IMG/VR virus record: IMGVR_UViG_2802429241_000004
Length of the DNA: 33,994 nucleotides
Reading direction: 5' to 3' (one strand)
Source: a virus
Lineage: Duplodnaviria > Heunggongvirae > Uroviricota > Caudoviricetes
The position numbers and the translations under genes were made by a program. Below, one piece after another: positions 1,440 to 32,865 of this stretch (the stretch's first letter is position 1; every line of letters begins with the position of its first letter). Under the pieces are notes generated by a model. The model was not told the origin of the DNA, did not search any database, and worked only from the letters and a program-made list of their open reading frames with translations.

Positions 1440-1446
1440 CTGTTTC

Positions 1447-1533
1447 GCTGAAAAACATAACCCATAAAATGCTAGCTGTACCAGGAACCACCTCCTTAGC
1501 CTGTGTAATCTCCCTTACACGGGCTTATTTTTT
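1447..1533 (+). ncRNA. cyaR: CyaR (RyeE) small regulatory RNA, about 87 nt, with intrinsic terminator (stem 1499-1524, U-tract 1528-1533)
   Basis: Sequence GCTGAAAAACATAACCCATAAAATGCTAGCTGTACCAGGAACCACCTCCTTAGCCTGTGTAATCTCCCTTACACGGGCTTATTTTTT matches my recollection of E. coli CyaR; it lies in the expected place downstream of yegQ and ends in a hairpin plus T6. Confidence 0.7.
1507..1533. other. P2-type attachment site core (attR copy), overlapping the cyaR terminator
   Basis: AATCTCCCTTACACGGGCTTATTTTTT is the reverse complement of the 27-nt P2 att core as I recall it (AAAAAATAAGCCCGTGTAAGGGAGATT); it sits exactly at the host/prophage junction next to ogr. Confidence 0.55.
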
Positions 1534-8360: not shown

Positions 8361-8671
8361 AGTCTTGATTTGTACTCGCTCAGTTCCCAACTGACAATTT
8401 ACGTAGCCAAAACGCTATCAGCTCTGGCAGCCAGCTTTGAGCGAGTCGAAAAAGTTCATACCTTTCTGCTGGTGAAGGTTTAACTAACAGTTCAACCTAT
8501 CAATTAATTGATGAACAGGTTGAGGCGTTTTTAATATCTCTGCGTCATCTGAGACGATTTTGCGCTACAGGATTTACGGCTTATCTGGGGGCATTCTTGA
8601 GCCTTGACTCCTCTGAAAACATAATTAGGCCATACCTGTGACCTGCCCTTCGTTGGTAAGGTTAGCGAATA

Positions 8672-9751
8672 TTAATCTGAGTCCATTTTCCCAAACTCTG
8701 TCAGGCCGAAAACGGAGCTACCAGAAACATGAGCTTGTAAGCCCGCTTCCTGCATTTCACTCAATTCAACTTCCTGGCTATCCTCTAATCCGATAGAGAA
8801 CATGGGATAGGCCCAGTTCCAATTCGGATCAGGAACCAAACTATTATTCTCTATCTTGAAAAAGCTGACCATGAGATGATGCCTTCCCTGTATCGCCTCT
8901 TCATCATTGATGTTGACCAGTACACCAAAGTGCTTGTAGCCGGCTTGTCCATTCTCGAACATTTTTATCTTGGTGCCGTTTCTGAACATCCAAAAAGAAT
9001 GATTTCCAGTGGAATCAGCGACCTGCAAGTTATCTTCGTCAATTTCCCAATTAAGATATTGTTTGATATCAGACTTTGGTTTGAGTTTTTCGTCATTACT
9101 AAACCATTGTATTGCCGGAAGTGGAAGGTGAAGACCTTCCGGCTGGGGAGGCTGACCTGCAGCAATGGAATGCATGATCTCTGTCATTGATGGAAGCCCC
9201 ATCAAATGCCATACATCATGGATATCCTTTTTAAGTATAAGAAGCCCTTTGGATACACCATCCGCGTAAGTTGACTTTAAGCGGACTAGTATGTCCTTGT
9301 TACCATCTTTGTCGAGGTCTTCAATGTTTACTGAAGAAGCCACAACCTCGTCGTCCCCTGCGTCTGGGATGATTGCCCAATACCCAATATCGTAGAATCC
9401 AGGTCTGCCAACCACCTTATCTATCAAACTCTGTCCAGAGGGCTCGAAGACCATCAGGAAACGGCTAAGGGCACCATTTGTGCTCACAGCTCTTCCGTAG
9501 ACTACAACGGAGTTTGAGGTGCTTAGATCGAGAGACTCGCTAGCCACTGAGTCAAACGCCACTGAGTCCAAATGTGTGGCAAGCTGCTGCTGGATGCACT
9601 CCCGAGCCATTTCAACTAATTTTTCGCGAACATCAGCAGATCGTATTGGCTGTGAAGTGAAATGGAAAAGCCCTACTGTAGCCGCTATGCCTATTATTCC
9701 CGAAATAACGGTACTTAGAACCTGCTCCTTTACCACTTTCACAACTTTCAT
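8672..9751 (-). CDS. hypothetical membrane-anchored protein (N-terminal TM helix, large C-terminal domain) at the P2 Z/fun variable locus; candidate superinfection-exclusion or defence protein
   Basis: Long ORF in an AT-rich island between FI and G. ATG at 9749-9751 preceded by purine-rich GAAG..AAGAAG; the ORF track's upstream start at 9781 is a GTG. Basic N-terminus then hydrophobic helix VLSTVISGIIGIAATVGLF; DLDKDGNKD loop; no known catalytic motif recognised. Confidence 0.6.
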   Translation of the reverse strand: MKVVKVVKEQVLSTVISGIIGIAATVGLFHFTSQPIRSADVREKLVEMARECIQQQLATHLDSVAFDSVASESLDLSTSNSVVVYGRAVSTNGALSRFLMVFEPSGQSLIDKVVGRPGFYDIGYWAIIPDAGDDEVVASSVNIEDLDKDGNKDILVRLKSTYADGVSKGLLILKKDIHDVWHLMGLPSMTEIMHSIAAGQPPQPEGLHLPLPAIQWFSNDEKLKPKSDIKQYLNWEIDEDNLQVADSTGNHSFWMFRNGTKIKMFENGQAGYKHFGVLVNINDEEAIQGRHHLMVSFFKIENNSLVPDPNWNWAYPMFSIGLEDSQEVELSEMQEAGLQAHVSGSSVFGLTEFGKMDSD

Positions 9752-10079
9752 CAATAGCTTCTTCAACTTCACTTCAGGCACCTAAATACTATTAAACTTG
9801 TCATGGGAAAATCCGATTATTATTGTAGAGAACAACAAAAACTGGCCTCGATTTTAGAGTTTTTCCAGTATCTATTTTCCGACTCGTTCGGCGGTAATCC
9901 ACCGTTATATTCATGAGGCCGGGGTGCACTATAATATTCAACTATATACTCTGTTTGTAGTGGCACATTAAATTTGGTGACAGATATGCATCACGTCCGC
10001 TCCTAGCACAGAGCGGACAGTCAGATTAGGTTTTACTCTGTGCCATAGATGAGTAATCTCACACCAGAGCTAATACGAT

Positions 10080-10658
10080 TTATTGCGGCATTTCTGGCCA
10101 TTCAATATCCGGGGCATTTTCCGGCTGAACGCGATTCAGTAGCACACGGTATTTTTTCCAGTGTGTCAGGCTTAACTTTTCTTCCTCGGTAGCCATATCT
10201 AAATCGACAGCATCCTGCAGCGTGGCAATAATTTCACCTGCATATGCAATCAGCTCTTTCTTCTGAGAGTCAGCCGCTCTGACAAGCGCATCACGCTCTG
10301 CATTCTCATCATTCACCCACGCATTTCCGTTCCATTTCTGATAATCCCCCTCAGGGGAAATGGCTGTCACGTCTGGAGGTAATGCGCCAAGTTCAGAAAT
10401 ATAAATGGCTGCTCCCGTTTTCGTTTCATAGACGGTCTTTCCGCGATGGTCTTCCATCAGTTCCCATTTCATTTCATCTGCATTGAAAACGGCTGCATAA
10501 CCAGCAGGAATATCAGGTGGTGCAATATCTGTACTGTTTGCAGGCAGGCCAGTATACGGTGGGATATATGCGTCACTTTCGCCAATAAATTCATTGGTTC
10601 CATCAAGTAAATTGAAAACGCGGATAGTTTGTGCTTCTGCACTCATTCTGAAAGCCAT
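10080..10658 (-). CDS. G: tail fiber assembly protein G
   Basis: Immediately follows H with TAATG stop/start overlap; size and position as in P2. Confidence 0.75.
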
Positions 10659-13273
10659 TATGCAAGCCTCACAATATAGTTAAATGCGATGTTTTTGACG
10701 GTATTTTCGGTATTACCCGTAGCATTTACCGTGATGGTGTGTCCGTGCGCACCTAATGCTACAGTGTGTGCATGGGCACCGATCCCTACTGTGTGGTTAT
10801 GCTGACCAATATCCACCGTATGGGCGTGCGCTCCGGCTGTGCTGGACACCTGATTGTTTCCTGAAGCCTGTACACGCTGTTTTCCACCGACAGAGTCGCC
10901 GCCATAAACACCACCGACAGTGTGCGTATGATTTCCCGTATTGTTCGTTGATTTTGTGCCGTGGTTAAACGTACTGACCGTCTTCGTGCCGTAATCAAAT
11001 GAACTGGTCGTTTTCGTTCCTAAGTCCGTATTTGACGCACTGGCGCTGTGAGTATGCGATTTAATCCCGTCCTGTTCCTGTGACAATACGGCACGCCCAC
11101 TGGCGGGTTTGCCCTTGATTGTCCAGCCGCGCATATCTGGAATAACACCAGAAGGATAGGCTATAGCCAGTTTCGGATATGCTGCCTTATCAAACGTCTG
11201 CCCCTGCATAATTGCATAGCCCGCAGGTGGTGTATCTGATGGCCACGGCAACGGAACACCTGGCGGAAATGCTTCAATATTTGCCGAGCCGTCAAATTTT
11301 ACGCCGTTAATTGTCCTTGCCGTTTTCAGCTTTGTAGCTGTAGCCGCATTGCCGGACAGTTCACCAGAAAGACCACCGCTGAATGTCTGTTTCGCCGCCC
11401 ATGTCTGAGCTTCGTCGATAATTGGCACACGTCTTGTCGTGATCGTGCGGCTTCCCGGATTTCCTGAAATACGCACCATAAAAAAGCGGTAATTCGCTTT
11501 ACTTACAGTGCTGCGCCATACATGCATTGAGCGCCCCGTACCGGAATCATCACTCGGACCAACTGCGATGTTTATCAGGTTGCCATCAATGACGCCCCAG
11601 TCCATACCGTCGGGAATGTTGGTCATGTTATCAAGCCGAACGGTTATCAGACTGCCCGGCACAAAGTCGTGGGTCTGCCAGTCCAGGCTGGTGAGCTTTG
11701 CCACTGCACCGCCGATACCCAGATTCAGGGGAAGTGAATACGAGGTGTAGACTTCCCGCCATTCGCTCCATGAGCTGCCGGTAAAAACGCGCTCAAACGT
11801 GCGACCTTTAAGGGTTGTACCTGTTCCGGCAGTTGTATAACGCTGCCATACGTTAACACCATCAAAGCGCCTCAACACTTCCAGAATACCGAGGACTGTC
11901 ACGCCGTTTCCGTCCAGTATTGGACCATTGGTCGCTTTACCTGTAACGCTGTAAATACCCGGTGAAGTCACATCATTCAAATCCCCGTCGTAATAACGAC
12001 TCTCTGACTGATGACCGACTCTTAACCACGGTTCCCACTGCGGATTTGATGCATCCCAGCTTGCCGCAAGGCAGCGGACATACATATTTCCACGGCGAGT
12101 GGTATAACGTTGCGTTCTTCCATAATTCCCGCCTTCGAGGATCTCAAGCGTCCCCTGAGCAAAGCCGCCTTCCTCTGGATAATTGCGTTCATATGAAGCT
12201 ATAGCCGAGCTACTGTTACGCCATAAACCAAGATGCTCGGCGGCTCCAAGCGTATTCAGGTCTATAGTCGTACTCAAAGGGCGGGTAGCAGATTGAGTGT
12301 GACGCCATACGCCCCACGGACCATCAGTGCCATTCCACTTATTGGCGAGTTTACGCATGTATACATTGCCGTCTCTCGTGGTAAAGCGTTGAGTACCTGC
12401 AAAATTGCCGGCAGCAAAAACCTCAAGCACACCGACAGCATTATCTTCCGGGAAATTTTTCTCCAGTGTTGCGTTAGTTGAGGTAGCTTTAGACCAGATC
12501 CCCAGATAAGCCTTAACGGGACCAAATGTATTCAGGTCGGCATCAACCGGCATTTCGCCATTGTTTTTCATAAACGTCAGGCTGGTAACGCCAACATTGT
12601 CCAGAAAAGCTGATTTATCCTGGATATCTGCACCGTTCTGATTTTTCGCCAGACGTGAATTTGCGTTGTCATTTGCTGCCTTGACCGCTTTTGGCGTTGC
12701 TGCCAGCTTTTCACTGGTGCTGTTTGTTGCACTGCTTAACTGAGTAAAACCTTTTTCTGTCAGCGTGGCGTCAGGATGGCGGCGGGACTGCTCATGCTCT
12801 GCGATTTTGTCATCGACGTAATCCTGCGTCGCCATCACTGTGCTGGCATCAATACTCAGCTCAACAGACGCCACGTTACTGACAATAATAACCATGCGGC
12901 AGGTCTGCGCACGCCCGGAGCCTTCAGCGAGTTCAGGCTTATAGCTTTCCGCCATGTTGGCGACCGCAATCAGTGTTCCGGCATCGTCATACAGACCAAG
13001 CTCACGCATCCAGAAGCCGCCCACTTCGGGCGGAACAACCAGTTCAGCCACGATATAGTTTTTATTCTTATTATCCACGCTGACTTTATTCAGGGCGTGA
13101 CGCCAGACCTCATGCACCAGTTTCGTCTGACCGGCATCCGGCACCGGCAATTTGCCATTACCGTCACCCACGGCCATTGCAGACAGGGTTACTTTTTTCC
13201 CGCCGGGGACAGTGGCGGCTGCCAGCTTTGCGGCTCCGGCAGTAGTGATAACGGTTTTAAATTTCGTGCTCAT
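10658..13273 (-). CDS. H: tail fiber protein H (871 aa, enlarged and mosaic, His-rich repeat tip)
   Basis: Begins [27 protein letters not shown] (conserved P2 H N-terminus); C-terminal region carries repeated HTHTV/HAHTV/HNHTV units. Confidence 0.85.
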
Positions 13274-25289: not shown

Positions 25290-26090
25290 CTATTTCATCA
25301 GTCCTATAAAAGCTGCTGTCATGCTACCCAATGCACCAATAGCAGCAAATAACGTTGCCCAAAACATGCTTTTTTGGCTACGAATATTCTCATTATATCG
25401 TTGTTCTTCATTATTGAAGTGATTTAACGTATTAATTGCTTTTCCAGTGGGCTTATAACCATCTCGAGTCTTTGAAATGTCCCCACTCTCTACAAGGGAA
25501 TCCAGACATAAGCGAAGTTCTTTTATGAGTCGAGAATAATCATCATGGTAGATCCATAAACGTCCTGCCACATCATTCATAATTAGAGTCTCACTGAATG
25601 GTTTTTCCCCTTGCTGCTCTCGATAAATTCTGACAATTGCAGCCAATACCGTCATTACATCGGTTATCTCCTGCTTGCGTTGTCGATACAAATACTTCTC
25701 ACGACTTAGCTTTTTATTTTGACGATTCGCTATTCTTCTAAATCTAAGCACATTAAAAAAAGATAAGTCGTCCAATGAGTCAAACTTCAATTCATGCGCA
25801 TGATAATAATAAATTCCAGAAAAGGAATTTGATGTAAGTCGTTCTGGTTTAAGAATTGTATCAATATTGAAAGTTTTATTCTGATGATTCCACTTCTTAA
25901 CCTTTATAATTCCGTTTGAATAACTATCAAAAAGATAGTCATTACCCTCGTCATCCTTAATGTAAACGGAATACATATCGTAATGAATGGCACTCTCATA
26001 CATTAAACTAATTTTGCCATTTTCAGGAGTCTTCTTTGACTCAAAAACTTTTAGAAACTTTACAACATCAACTTTATTTTTATACCTCAT
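25290..26090 (-). CDS. hypothetical tail-anchored membrane protein (266 aa, single C-terminal TM helix); candidate effector of the RT system
   Basis: AT-rich ORF directly downstream of the RT gene on the same strand; C-terminus MFWATLFAAIGALGSMTAAFIGLMK is a predicted TM helix; N-terminal domain has no motif I recognise. Confidence 0.6.
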   Translation of the reverse strand: MRYKNKVDVVKFLKVFESKKTPENGKISLMYESAIHYDMYSVYIKDDEGNDYLFDSYSNGIIKVKKWNHQNKTFNIDTILKPERLTSNSFSGIYYYHAHELKFDSLDDLSFFNVLRFRRIANRQNKKLSREKYLYRQRKQEITDVMTVLAAIVRIYREQQGEKPFSETLIMNDVAGRLWIYHDDYSRLIKELRLCLDSLVESGDISKTRDGYKPTGKAINTLNHFNNEEQRYNENIRSQKSMFWATLFAAIGALGSMTAAFIGLMK

Positions 26091-26255: not shown

Positions 26256-27206
26256 TTAAACCGATGTATTTGCTTTCAACGTCAATACTTTCGATCTGTA
26301 ACGTTTTTCAATAACCCCCATTGAATATAAACGACCAAATAATTTCTTTGCTGTTCTTGTATCTTTAGCTTGTTCTACATCTTTTATTATTTTCCAAAGC
26401 TCTATTTCTCTAGCCATAAGATAATGCTGTTCGTTCCTAACCTTTAAGCTATCCCCAAATACTATAACTCCTGTCACCAGTTTAGGCTTATCCCCAGCAT
26501 ATAATTTCGTTTTAGTTGGATGCATCACGTGTCCATGCTTATTAATAATCTTACGAATCACGCTGCAAAACAATCGATTTACATTATCTCCAGAAAAAGT
26601 AAGATCATCGACATAAACTGTCATTTTCACACGAAACTTCTCACAAAGTTGATTCATTTCATCAAACATTCTGGAATTTGCAAAATATGCTAATGGCATA
26701 CTAATCCGACTACCCGTTGGCAATCGTTCATGACAGGTACATATATGAGATAAAATATCAGCCACATCTGGCGACATTTTCATTATTGAGAAAAAGAAAG
26801 AAAATATCATTTCTCTTGTTGTTGACGGAAAAAAAGATTTAATATCTGTAGTCATCAACTTCTGATGATTGAGATGTGCTTTAGCATTTGTTATGTTAGA
26901 GCAACTTTTTTTACCAGAGTGCAAATACTCTGGCATAGCTATACGCAATAATAAACTCGCAATACGTGTATGCACTACATCTAATTTTTCTAAAGGCTTT
27001 TGTATTTTCCGTATTTTATTTTTTTTAGAAAGCTGTTCAAAAATAGAGTAATTACCCTCATCCCTCTTCAAAGCTGATAGATCATTGATACTAACGCAGA
27101 GCAAGCTAGCCAACTTTTTTTTACTTTTAAGTTTATAAAGTGGCGAATCCGTAATAGGATAAGATTTATTTTTAGTTGAAACCTTCAGTTTAATCCTTTT
27201 TTTCAT
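26256..27206 (-). CDS. retron-type reverse transcriptase (316 aa)
   Basis: RT motifs read directly from the translation: NAKAH (NAxxH), DIKSFFPS, LPTGSRISMPLAYFA (QG..SP block), YVDD catalytic box, LVTGVIV (retron VTG). Block order parallels the Ec86 RT as I recall it. Confidence 0.8.
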   Translation of the reverse strand: MKKRIKLKVSTKNKSYPITDSPLYKLKSKKKLASLLCVSINDLSALKRDEGNYSIFEQLSKKNKIRKIQKPLEKLDVVHTRIASLLLRIAMPEYLHSGKKSCSNITNAKAHLNHQKLMTTDIKSFFPSTTREMIFSFFFSIMKMSPDVADILSHICTCHERLPTGSRISMPLAYFANSRMFDEMNQLCEKFRVKMTVYVDDLTFSGDNVNRLFCSVIRKIINKHGHVMHPTKTKLYAGDKPKLVTGVIVFGDSLKVRNEQHYLMAREIELWKIIKDVEQAKDTRTAKKLFGRLYSMGVIEKRYRSKVLTLKANTSV

Positions 27207-27504
27207 TTCTTTTACTTACCCACTCTAGTATATCCAGAACTTTCCCTGCCAGTTTTAAACGTAAACTTTTGGATAACCGTCCTTGTGTCCCTAATGATTC
27301 TGAAAAAAAGACTAAAGAGGATACTGGCATGTCGAAATGGGAAGCATAACGCTGTAAAATATCAATCGACGGCACCCATAGTCCGCTTTCAATCTCTACT
27401 ATTCTGCTTTTTGGAATACCTAAAGATGATGATAAGTCAACTATTGATTCTTTATGGTATTGCCTTATTAAACGAAGGGCTTTATGCAACATAGGCAACT
27501 CCAT
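27190..27504 (-). CDS. XRE/Cro-type helix-turn-helix protein (104 aa)
   Basis: Classic HTH segment ESIVDLSSSLGIPKSRIVEIESGLWVPSIDILQRYASHFDMP; its stop overlaps the RT start by 17 nt. Confidence 0.65.
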   Translation of the reverse strand: MELPMLHKALRLIRQYHKESIVDLSSSLGIPKSRIVEIESGLWVPSIDILQRYASHFDMPVSSLVFFSESLGTQGRLSKSLRLKLAGKVLDILEWVSKRNEKKD

Positions 27505-27528: not shown

Positions 27529-27684
27529 TTACTCATCTCCCCCTTCAAAGAAGTCAACTGCGCGAGTGATCCAATAAAGTAGTCTAATAAGCCACTTAAT
27601 TACACCCCAAGCGTTAGGAGTCTTCTTTTTCCGGTTTAACTTGTTTTGCGCCTGCTGTTCGTTGGTTACTTTATCATTTTTCAT
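27529..27684 (-). CDS. small hypothetical protein (51 aa) with amphipathic or hydrophobic core
   Basis: Internal ATG at 27682-27684 preceded by a consensus AAGGAG Shine-Dalgarno with 6-nt spacer; product MKNDKVTNEQQAQNKLNRKKKTPNAWGVIKWLIRLLYWITRAVDFFEGGDE. The 97-aa upstream extension is less likely. Confidence 0.4.
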   Translation of the reverse strand: MKNDKVTNEQQAQNKLNRKKKTPNAWGVIKWLIRLLYWITRAVDFFEGGDE

Positions 27685-27786
27685 GACCTGCTCCTTATGT
27701 CCACGGTGTGCAAACGATATGTCTGCTCCAACACCATGGCTCGCCCTCATAAGGATGAGATTGAACAGCACCAGCTCCCTGCTCCA

Positions 27787-27813
27787 CGAACCCTTTGTCG
27801 CCCAAAGGGTTCG
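27787..27813 (-). other. stable hairpin (11-bp perfect stem CGAACCCTTTG / CAAAGGGTTCG, 5-nt loop) within a locally GC-richer structured segment; possible ncRNA element
   Basis: Perfect inverted repeat read directly from the sequence; no flanking T-tract on either strand, so it is not a simple terminator. Confidence 0.35.
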
Positions 27814-28126
27814 AATACCCATACGCTATACCGCTTGAATCAGAGACTCCTGTCGCTGACAGAGGCGTTGCGCGGGGTAAATGTTAGAAAGCATTAGCTT
27901 TCCACGGGCAATAAATACCCAATTGATGGCGATTTATCTCACTAACTAACCAATGATTGAATCATACCAAGTAAACCGTTGTATTTGATCTCTCCTTATA
28001 TAATTTTTTGTTATTAATCAATATAAATAAATAACAAAAAGAAATATAGCTAATTTTCATCCGTCTCATCACAATAAATATCAACAAATCAAGAATATCG
28101 TTTGATTATCTAGTCTTTCCAATTCA

Positions 28127-32565: not shown

Positions 32566-32865
32566 ATGTCAATAGACGTTTCGGAGAAGTTGAAGCTAAT
32601 CCGTGAATCTGAAAGGTTAAACCGTAAAGAATTCAGTGAATTAACTGGTGTAGCCTACAGCTCACTTTCGAGCTATGAGAGCCGGTCAAAAAACGCTGGA
32701 GTTGAAGCCATAATGAAGGTCTTACAACATCCTAGATTTACTAAATATACTTTGTGGTTCATGACTGATCAGGTAGCTCCAGAAGCCGGGCAAATTGCGC
32801 CCGCTCTCGCACACTTTGGGCAAAACGAAACAACGTCGCCCCACTCCGGTCAAAAGACTGGTTAA
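32566..32865 (+). CDS. C: immunity repressor C (99 aa)
   Basis: Start at MSIDVSEKLKLIRESE (ATG 32566, GGAG SD upstream); C-terminal half FTKYTLWFMTDQVAPEAGQIAPALAHFGQNETTSPHSGQKTG resembles the P2 C repressor. Confidence 0.8.
   Translation: MSIDVSEKLKLIRESERLNRKEFSELTGVAYSSLSSYESRSKNAGVEAIMKVLQHPRFTKYTLWFMTDQVAPEAGQIAPALAHFGQNETTSPHSGQKTG

Follow-up and report, generated by a model that had tools for sequence, protein, structure and literature searches.

The question raised by this locus is whether a tail-fibre gene that starts like that of phage P2 and ends in a series of histidine-rich HxHTV units carries a foreign tip, and where such a tip would begin. The window, by which we mean the whole 33,994-nucleotide stretch of viral DNA analyzed, holds this gene, H, in an otherwise P2-like setting. 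On the observed homology, conservation, module boundaries and co-inheritance, we consider it very probable that H serves an intact P2-like prophage of E. coli as its tail fibre, and that the needle of H, of the type of T4 gp37 and lambda Stf, was acquired with gene G as one module; trimer fold, metal, receptor and host range are predicted.

The prophage and its tail-fibre gene

A tblastn comparison with all P2 proteins identified the whole window as a complete P2-like prophage. The P2 gene order is kept (ogr, D, U, T, E, FII, FI, G, H, I, J, W, V, S, R, followed by the lysis and head genes, A, B, cox, C and int), and in the same comparison most genes are 97-100% identical to P2. The departures from P2 cluster at four sites: the distal part of H; G; the fun(Z) and old/tin cargo loci; and the repressor C, which is 65% identical to that of P2. 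No retron RNA was found near the type VI reverse transcriptase with Rfam at the gathering threshold. The CyaR sRNA gene at 1445-1530 represents host DNA at the left end.

Gene H occupies 10658..13273 on the minus strand, as do all of the H and G features described below, and the open reading frame list and the sequence give it 871 amino acids plus a stop codon. It lies between I and G in the V-W-J-I-H-G operon, and the neighbouring genes are 94-100% identical to those of P2. Pfam recognizes three domains in H: PF12571 (residues 1-151, 9.9e-58), PF03406 (residues 170-211) and PF07484. Nothing was found by Pfam in residues 212-671, and NCBIfam gave no match for H or G. By its PF12571 N-terminus and its place in the I-H-G order, the locus is identified as the peduovirus (P2) tail fibre gpH.

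H is a mosaic of at least three sources, which raises the possibility that the prophage is decaying and H a chimera without function, or that H is an artefact of assembly. We regard this as highly improbable. H has an intact reading frame and is coupled to G in translation, and the P2 gene set around them is essentially complete. The protein is identical over all 871 residues to the RefSeq entry WP_105265720.1, encoded in an independent genome (NZ_AP045810.1), and of 5426 complete E. coli genomes, 97 carry full-length H and G together, one of them with a 100% identical H. The same architecture is seen in an isolated phage, P24A7b, whose H has 874 residues and whose G is 97% identical. The object is an ordinary and already catalogued exchange of a tail-fibre module, and the identical protein is already public.

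Layers of H and the boundaries of the exchanged module

The H protein has 871 residues and P2 H has 669, in agreement with an initial annotation that had called H enlarged against a length of about 670 for P2. Their likeness is limited to residues 1-207 (12653..13273), which comprise the P2-type N-terminal baseplate-attachment domain and the first fibre repeat and are 85% identical to residues 1-207 of P2 H. No colinear alignment of the two proteins was obtained, with no detectable similarity past residue 207, and the proposal of a conserved N-terminus joined to a different distal part is therefore upheld. The P2-type C-terminal receptor-binding region, which ends in ...KYINGTWYNVAQV and is accompanied by a 175-residue P2-type G, is absent here. 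H can instead be divided into three layers: the P2-like residues 1-207, pyocin-type knobs in residues 208-652, and a needle from about residue 654 to 871.

The junction between the second and third layers lies in a conserved motif, ATKLKTAR/TINGV, at H residues ~648-660 (11293..11331), and the likeness to peduovirus H genes with the P2-type tip ends at 11307. In megablast and blastn searches, the match to 10W, P24C9, 11W and other peduoviruses is about 95% over the first 1952-1967 nucleotides and then stops. The 919-residue H of 10W is 95% identical to ours up to residue ~655 and continues with the P2-type C-terminus (…KYINGTWYNVAQV). This end of 10W H lacks HxH motifs, and the next gene is a P2-type G of 175 residues. 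The C-terminus that P2 and 10W carry is unrelated to the one found here, and comparison with 10W, in which a shared H leads to the needle in one case and to the P2-type end in the other, supports the earlier suggestion of a swapped tip. The needle module, at 219 residues, is shorter than the 266-residue P2-type tip that it replaces in 10W, so that the additional length over P2 H must come from the middle region, residues 208-652. The initial annotation had presented H as a fibre enlarged with a His-box array; the size and the array are both real, but the array and its module are not the source of the extra length.

The other end of the module lies about 85 nucleotides past G, near 9993, and the cargo region beyond differs in every relative compared. 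G (10080..10658) encodes a protein of 192 residues that by homology is a tail-fibre assembly chaperone of the lambda Tfa/T4 gp38 type (Caudo_TAP, PF02413, 1e-40). It is 65% identical to lambda Tfa over the full length and 29% identical to T4 gp38, also over the full length (E=1e-19), while its similarity to P2 G is confined to the C-terminal ~99 residues (40%). In the modular model of Tfa, the fibre tip is bound through a variable N-domain, and trimerization is driven by a conserved C-domain (PMC9608196); the restriction of the likeness with P2 G to the C-terminus fits this model. The stop codon of H and the start codon of G share one base (TAATG). The same one-base overlap is found in lambda stf/tfa, whereas H and G of P2 are three bases apart.

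Since G is closest in type to Tfa and gp38, the tip and the chaperone appear to have come as one module, and the sequence comparisons indicate that the swap takes in gene G with the needle tip. Both would have been acquired as a single recombination module, joined at ATKLKTAR. The variable N-terminal part of G would suit the type of needle tip, and G would be needed to fold the trimer. Other peduovirus alleles (WP_105265720.1, WP_094248818.1, and those of P24A7b and STYP1) have the same gene position, N-terminus and needle type as H, and are accompanied by the same 192-residue G (89-99% identical). The STYP1 H, at 605 residues, is without the knob region, and its tip matches that of H at 19 of 22 positions. 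At E<=1e-10, the needle module as a whole is related to 1353 database entries, and tblastn matched it in 621 phage records.

The locus illustrates cleanly how modules can be nested in a natural tail fibre: an N-terminal anchor is followed by a knob shaft and then by a needle that comes with its chaperone, and within the needle lies a cassette of 31 residues. Its exact junctions, at ATKLKTAR and at the HxH frames that border the tip, could be of help in retargeting P2/P4-based delivery particles or tailocins. In practical terms the locus is of modest value, and the picture of HxH metal sites and of fibre evolution is unchanged.

The needle and its HxH motifs

A phmmer search of the PDB with H residues 653-871 aligned the last 206 residues of H end to end with 2XGF, the receptor-binding tip of T4 gp37 (residues 785-1026), with E=2.7e-78; query positions 14-219 fall on positions 26-242 of chain A. 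Lambda Stf (orf-314) is 60% identical to H over 256 residues. These two matches confirm the assignment of the His-box region to the gp37 type of tip. Using the published limits of the gp37 subdomains (D10 collar, 811-881 and 1010-1026; stem, 882-931 and 960-1009; tip, 932-959; PMC6957217), identity to T4 gp37 is 71/88 in the collar, 63/91 in the stem and 7/22 in the tip.

The first part of the collar, H residues 667-738 (11060..11275), corresponds to 811-881 of D10 and contains the above-cut-off match to the Pfam Collar domain (PF07484, residues 672-719, 7.2e-10). In the 2XGF alignment it is followed by an ascending stem strand, residues 739-784 (10922..11059), which carries GTK repeats and the first two HxH motifs, at residues 740-742 and 782-784. 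After the tip segment comes a descending strand, residues 816-854 (10712..10828), which has four HxH motifs at a spacing of nine residues and is aligned to T4 gp37 966-1009 and to lambda Stf. The protein ends with a strand that returns into the collar, residues 855-871 (10661..10711), and the last 17-18 residues of H are the same as those of T4 gp37 and lambda Stf.

H resembles T4 gp37 in the order collar-stem-tip-stem-collar, in having HxH motifs on both strands, and in having a chaperone gene immediately 3'. The two differ in that H has six HxH motifs rather than seven, along with two short stem deletions, and in that the needle of H is mounted on a P2-type fibre, whereas that of T4 is mounted on the gp34-37 long fibre. 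Also in contrast to T4, no gp57A is encoded within the window. The choice of the T4 rung that H lacks varies with the alignment used: the pairwise alignments point to H915/H917, and the three-way alignment is ambiguous. Lambda Stf has eight HxH motifs, with 47 residues between the central ones, as compared with six and 31 in H. In its siphovirus, Stf serves as an accessory side fibre, while the module in H is part of the sole tail fibre of a P2-type myovirus.

The six HxH motifs start at residues 740, 782, 816, 825, 834 and 843, two on the outgoing strand and four on the returning strand. The initial annotation had quoted a C-terminal peptide of HxHTV units, and this is present in H exactly. 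The interval that it gave for the array, 10690-10960, corresponds to H residues ~772-862 and takes in five of the six motifs; the motif within SHTHS at residues 740-742 (11048-11056) lies outside it, as does the collar at residues 667-738. The last four motifs have an exact nine-residue period (GAHAHTVDI, GQHNHTVGI, GAHAHTVAL and GAHGHTITV, or GxHxHTVx[IL]).

Four units at an exact period might be taken for the product of chance or of a recent tandem duplication, a low-complexity stretch without a role in metal binding. This explanation is scarcely credible. Shuffles of the whole protein contained a mean of 0.53 HxH motifs and never reached six in 20,000 trials; when only the last 137 residues were shuffled, the mean was 1.1, and 1 of 20,000 trials reached six. 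The 27-nucleotide units that encode the four motifs are only 52-67% identical to each other. In an alignment of 30 homologues, each of the 12 histidines of the motifs is either invariant or at least 90% conserved, and the array aligns end to end with a crystal structure whose motifs bind iron. A recent duplication or a slippage array in particular is ruled out, since Tandem Repeats Finder detected no repeat at the DNA level in the His-box region. The periodicity is old and exists at the protein level only.

The iron of gp37 bears on the further claim of the initial annotation, that HxH units coordinate metal in tips of this type. For the known proteins the claim is correct: three chains together supply the HxH motifs that coordinate iron octahedrally (PMC6957217, PMC6116203, PMC11705849). 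In the gp37 needle, which has seven irons along its length, H929/H931 are indispensable (PMC6957217). Three copies of an HxH motif make up an octahedral Fe site in gp37, in R-pyocin fibres and in P2 gpV, and crystals of T4 gp12 have Zn at the HxH site (PMC6116203).

By homology, three H chains would trimerize. Each chain would pass from a gp12-like collar (667-738) out along the axis (739-784) to the distal tip (785-815), return interdigitated with its partners (816-854), and re-enter the collar (855-871). Each HxH motif, present three times, would then form one octahedral six-histidine metal site on the axis, giving six predicted sites per fibre as against the seven irons of T4 gp37, and these buried sites may rivet the thin stem. 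An AF2 monomer model of residues 653-871, made with a 30-sequence alignment, had a pLDDT of 54 and a pTM of 0.20, a low score that is expected for an interdigitated trimer.

Middle knobs, tip cassette and host recognition

The middle shaft, H residues 208-652 (11318..12652), is absent from P2 H and consists of three tandem knob-like repeats (residues ~237-512) and a further beta-rich domain. The first two repeats are 44% identical to each other (E=1e-24). A phmmer search of the PDB with this region found only a short Mu/P1 fibre repeat, and the knobs emerged by fold search. In the AF2 model of residues 208-652, the knob blocks have pLDDT values of ~70-87 (mean for the model 65, pTM 0.31), and the best PDB matches to the model by Foldseek are the R1 and R2 pyocin fibres 6CL5 and 6CL6 (E=3e-7 and 1.4e-6, probability 1.00). 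Homologues of the region are named "pyocin knob domain-containing" at NCBI. With moderate confidence, the middle region can be described as a tandem array of pyocin-type beta-sheet knobs of ~85 residues.

The resemblance to R-type pyocin fibres is in the tandem knobs, at H residues ~237-510, with a sequence identity of about 20%. The pyocin shaft also has an HxH motif that forms a buried octahedral iron site. The pyocin fibres differ in having two knobs and only one HxH site, and they end in a lectin-like C-terminal foot, with no collar and needle of the kind present in H.

The hypervariable tip segment consists of the 31 residues between the second and third HxH motifs, H residues 785-815 (10829..10921), which correspond to T4 gp37 ~932-965 and are presumed to form the receptor-contact loops. 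In the alignment of 30 homologues there is no consensus in this segment. With 7 of 22 positions (~30%) shared with T4, the OmpC/LPS specificity of T4 cannot be transferred to H. We found no receptor or host-range data in the literature for this allele of H or for its closest phage relatives. We expect these loops to contact the host receptor and to set the specificity of adsorption, and the altered host range suggested in the initial annotation is, like the metal sites, a prediction from homology.

The needle could instead be mainly structural, with the three middle knobs setting host specificity largely or jointly by binding glycans along the side of the fibre. The match of the middle region to the R1 and R2 pyocin knobs lends this some weight, since Knob2, the most variable part of pyocin fibres, is believed to set their killing spectrum, and saccharides are bound by knob-like domains of K1F (PMC6116203). 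The middle region also differs among peduoviruses, the P24A7b protein matching H at 275 of 445 positions. We nevertheless think this reading unlikely. Between H and the ST131 allele (WP_094248818.1, 872 residues), the knobs are 98% identical (435/445), as are, approximately, all other segments except residues 785-815, in which only 9 of 31 residues match. In T4, essentially all surface residues of the tip are required for binding of LPS and OmpC (PMC6957217). Roles for the knobs and for the tip in host recognition could also coexist, as they are not mutually exclusive.

A tip that contacts the receptor remains our preferred reading, and the distribution of tip types indicates a finer scale of exchange, at which the 31-residue cassette would be exchanged between conserved His-box frames. 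P24A7b has a collar and stem nearly identical to those of H and a cassette that matches in only 8 of 31 positions. The tip type of H (18-19 of 22 positions) also occurs on gp37 of the T-even phage PTE-Eco15 and on H of the Salmonella P2-like phage STYP1. The variation of the cassette, together with the occurrence of one tip type in T-even and P2-like phages, points to a hypervariable cassette in a conserved His-box frame that is common to unrelated phage groups. The pattern of a hypervariable cassette was described for the fibres of T-even phages in the 1990s.

More tentatively, this rare cassette on a six-rung needle may bind a receptor other than the OmpC/LPS-glucose of T4. The His-box frames may serve as anchors for recombination, so that cassettes could pass among E. 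coli prophages, lambdoid phages and T-even phages without the remainder of the fibre. If its three knobs bind glycans, H might then act as a two-site adhesin. We put this forward as a possibility that is less likely than not. A near-identical 31-residue cassette is present in 7 of the 5426 complete E. coli genomes.

Shaft and tip of the tail fibre

The shaft of the tail fibre H (the middle region, aa 208-652 of 871) carries three tandem knob-like repeats at H aa ~237-512 (window 11738-12565). The first two are 44% identical to each other, and this pair is clearly an internal duplication. The entire middle region also matches, with 58% identity over 96% coverage, a protein of the T-even Shigella phage JK23 named "large distal tail fiber subunit"; from this match, shaft exchange evidently extends to the T-even phages as well.

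The DNA of the tip cassette, the hypervariable segment between the second and third HxH motifs of H (window 10826-10921), is near-identical in only four of 5426 complete E. coli genomes and approximately 87% identical in three more, whereas the backbone of H and its downstream chaperone gene G was found in 97 of the 5426. The matching places number eight, one of them on a plasmid record.

Cargo at the P2 hotspots

The position corresponding to the P2 old/tin hotspot is occupied by what its protein matches identify as a type VI retron (window 26256-27504, minus strand), and none of P2 old, tin and orf91 is present in the window. The 316-aa reverse transcriptase of the retron matches PADLOC RT_VI (2.4e-106) and also Pfam RVT_1, and the 104-aa HTH protein that overlaps it matches HTH_VI (2.5e-31). 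No msr/msd RNA was detected with Rfam at the gathering threshold. Adjoining the retron on the minus strand are ORFs of 266 aa (window 25290-26090) and 97 aa (27529-27822), which belong to PHROG 7611 and PHROG 5826, respectively, both families of unknown function, and are without Pfam or PADLOC matches.

Between G and FI, at the fun(Z) hotspot (window 8445-9993, minus strand), lies a 369-aa ORF (8672-9781) with a hydrophobic helix at its N-terminus. Pfam and PADLOC searches with this ORF were both empty, its sole match being PHROG 15038 (unknown function; 8.5e-259). The cargo of about 1.5 kb differs in all of the related prophages and phages compared, including the genome with an identical H (NZ_AP045810.1). 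The ORF is a candidate for an accessory or defence role.

Immunity region and left end

The immunity repressor C (window 32566-32862) shares only 65% identity with its P2 counterpart, an indication that the prophage differs from P2 in immunity type. P2 orf30 is absent from the corresponding region between S and V. At the left end of the prophage, ogr adjoins a CyaR/RyeE sRNA gene (window 1445-1530, plus strand; Rfam RF00112, 100.7 bits), and the window therefore begins within the host chromosome. P2 is known to have an attachment site at cyaR, with which this position agrees.
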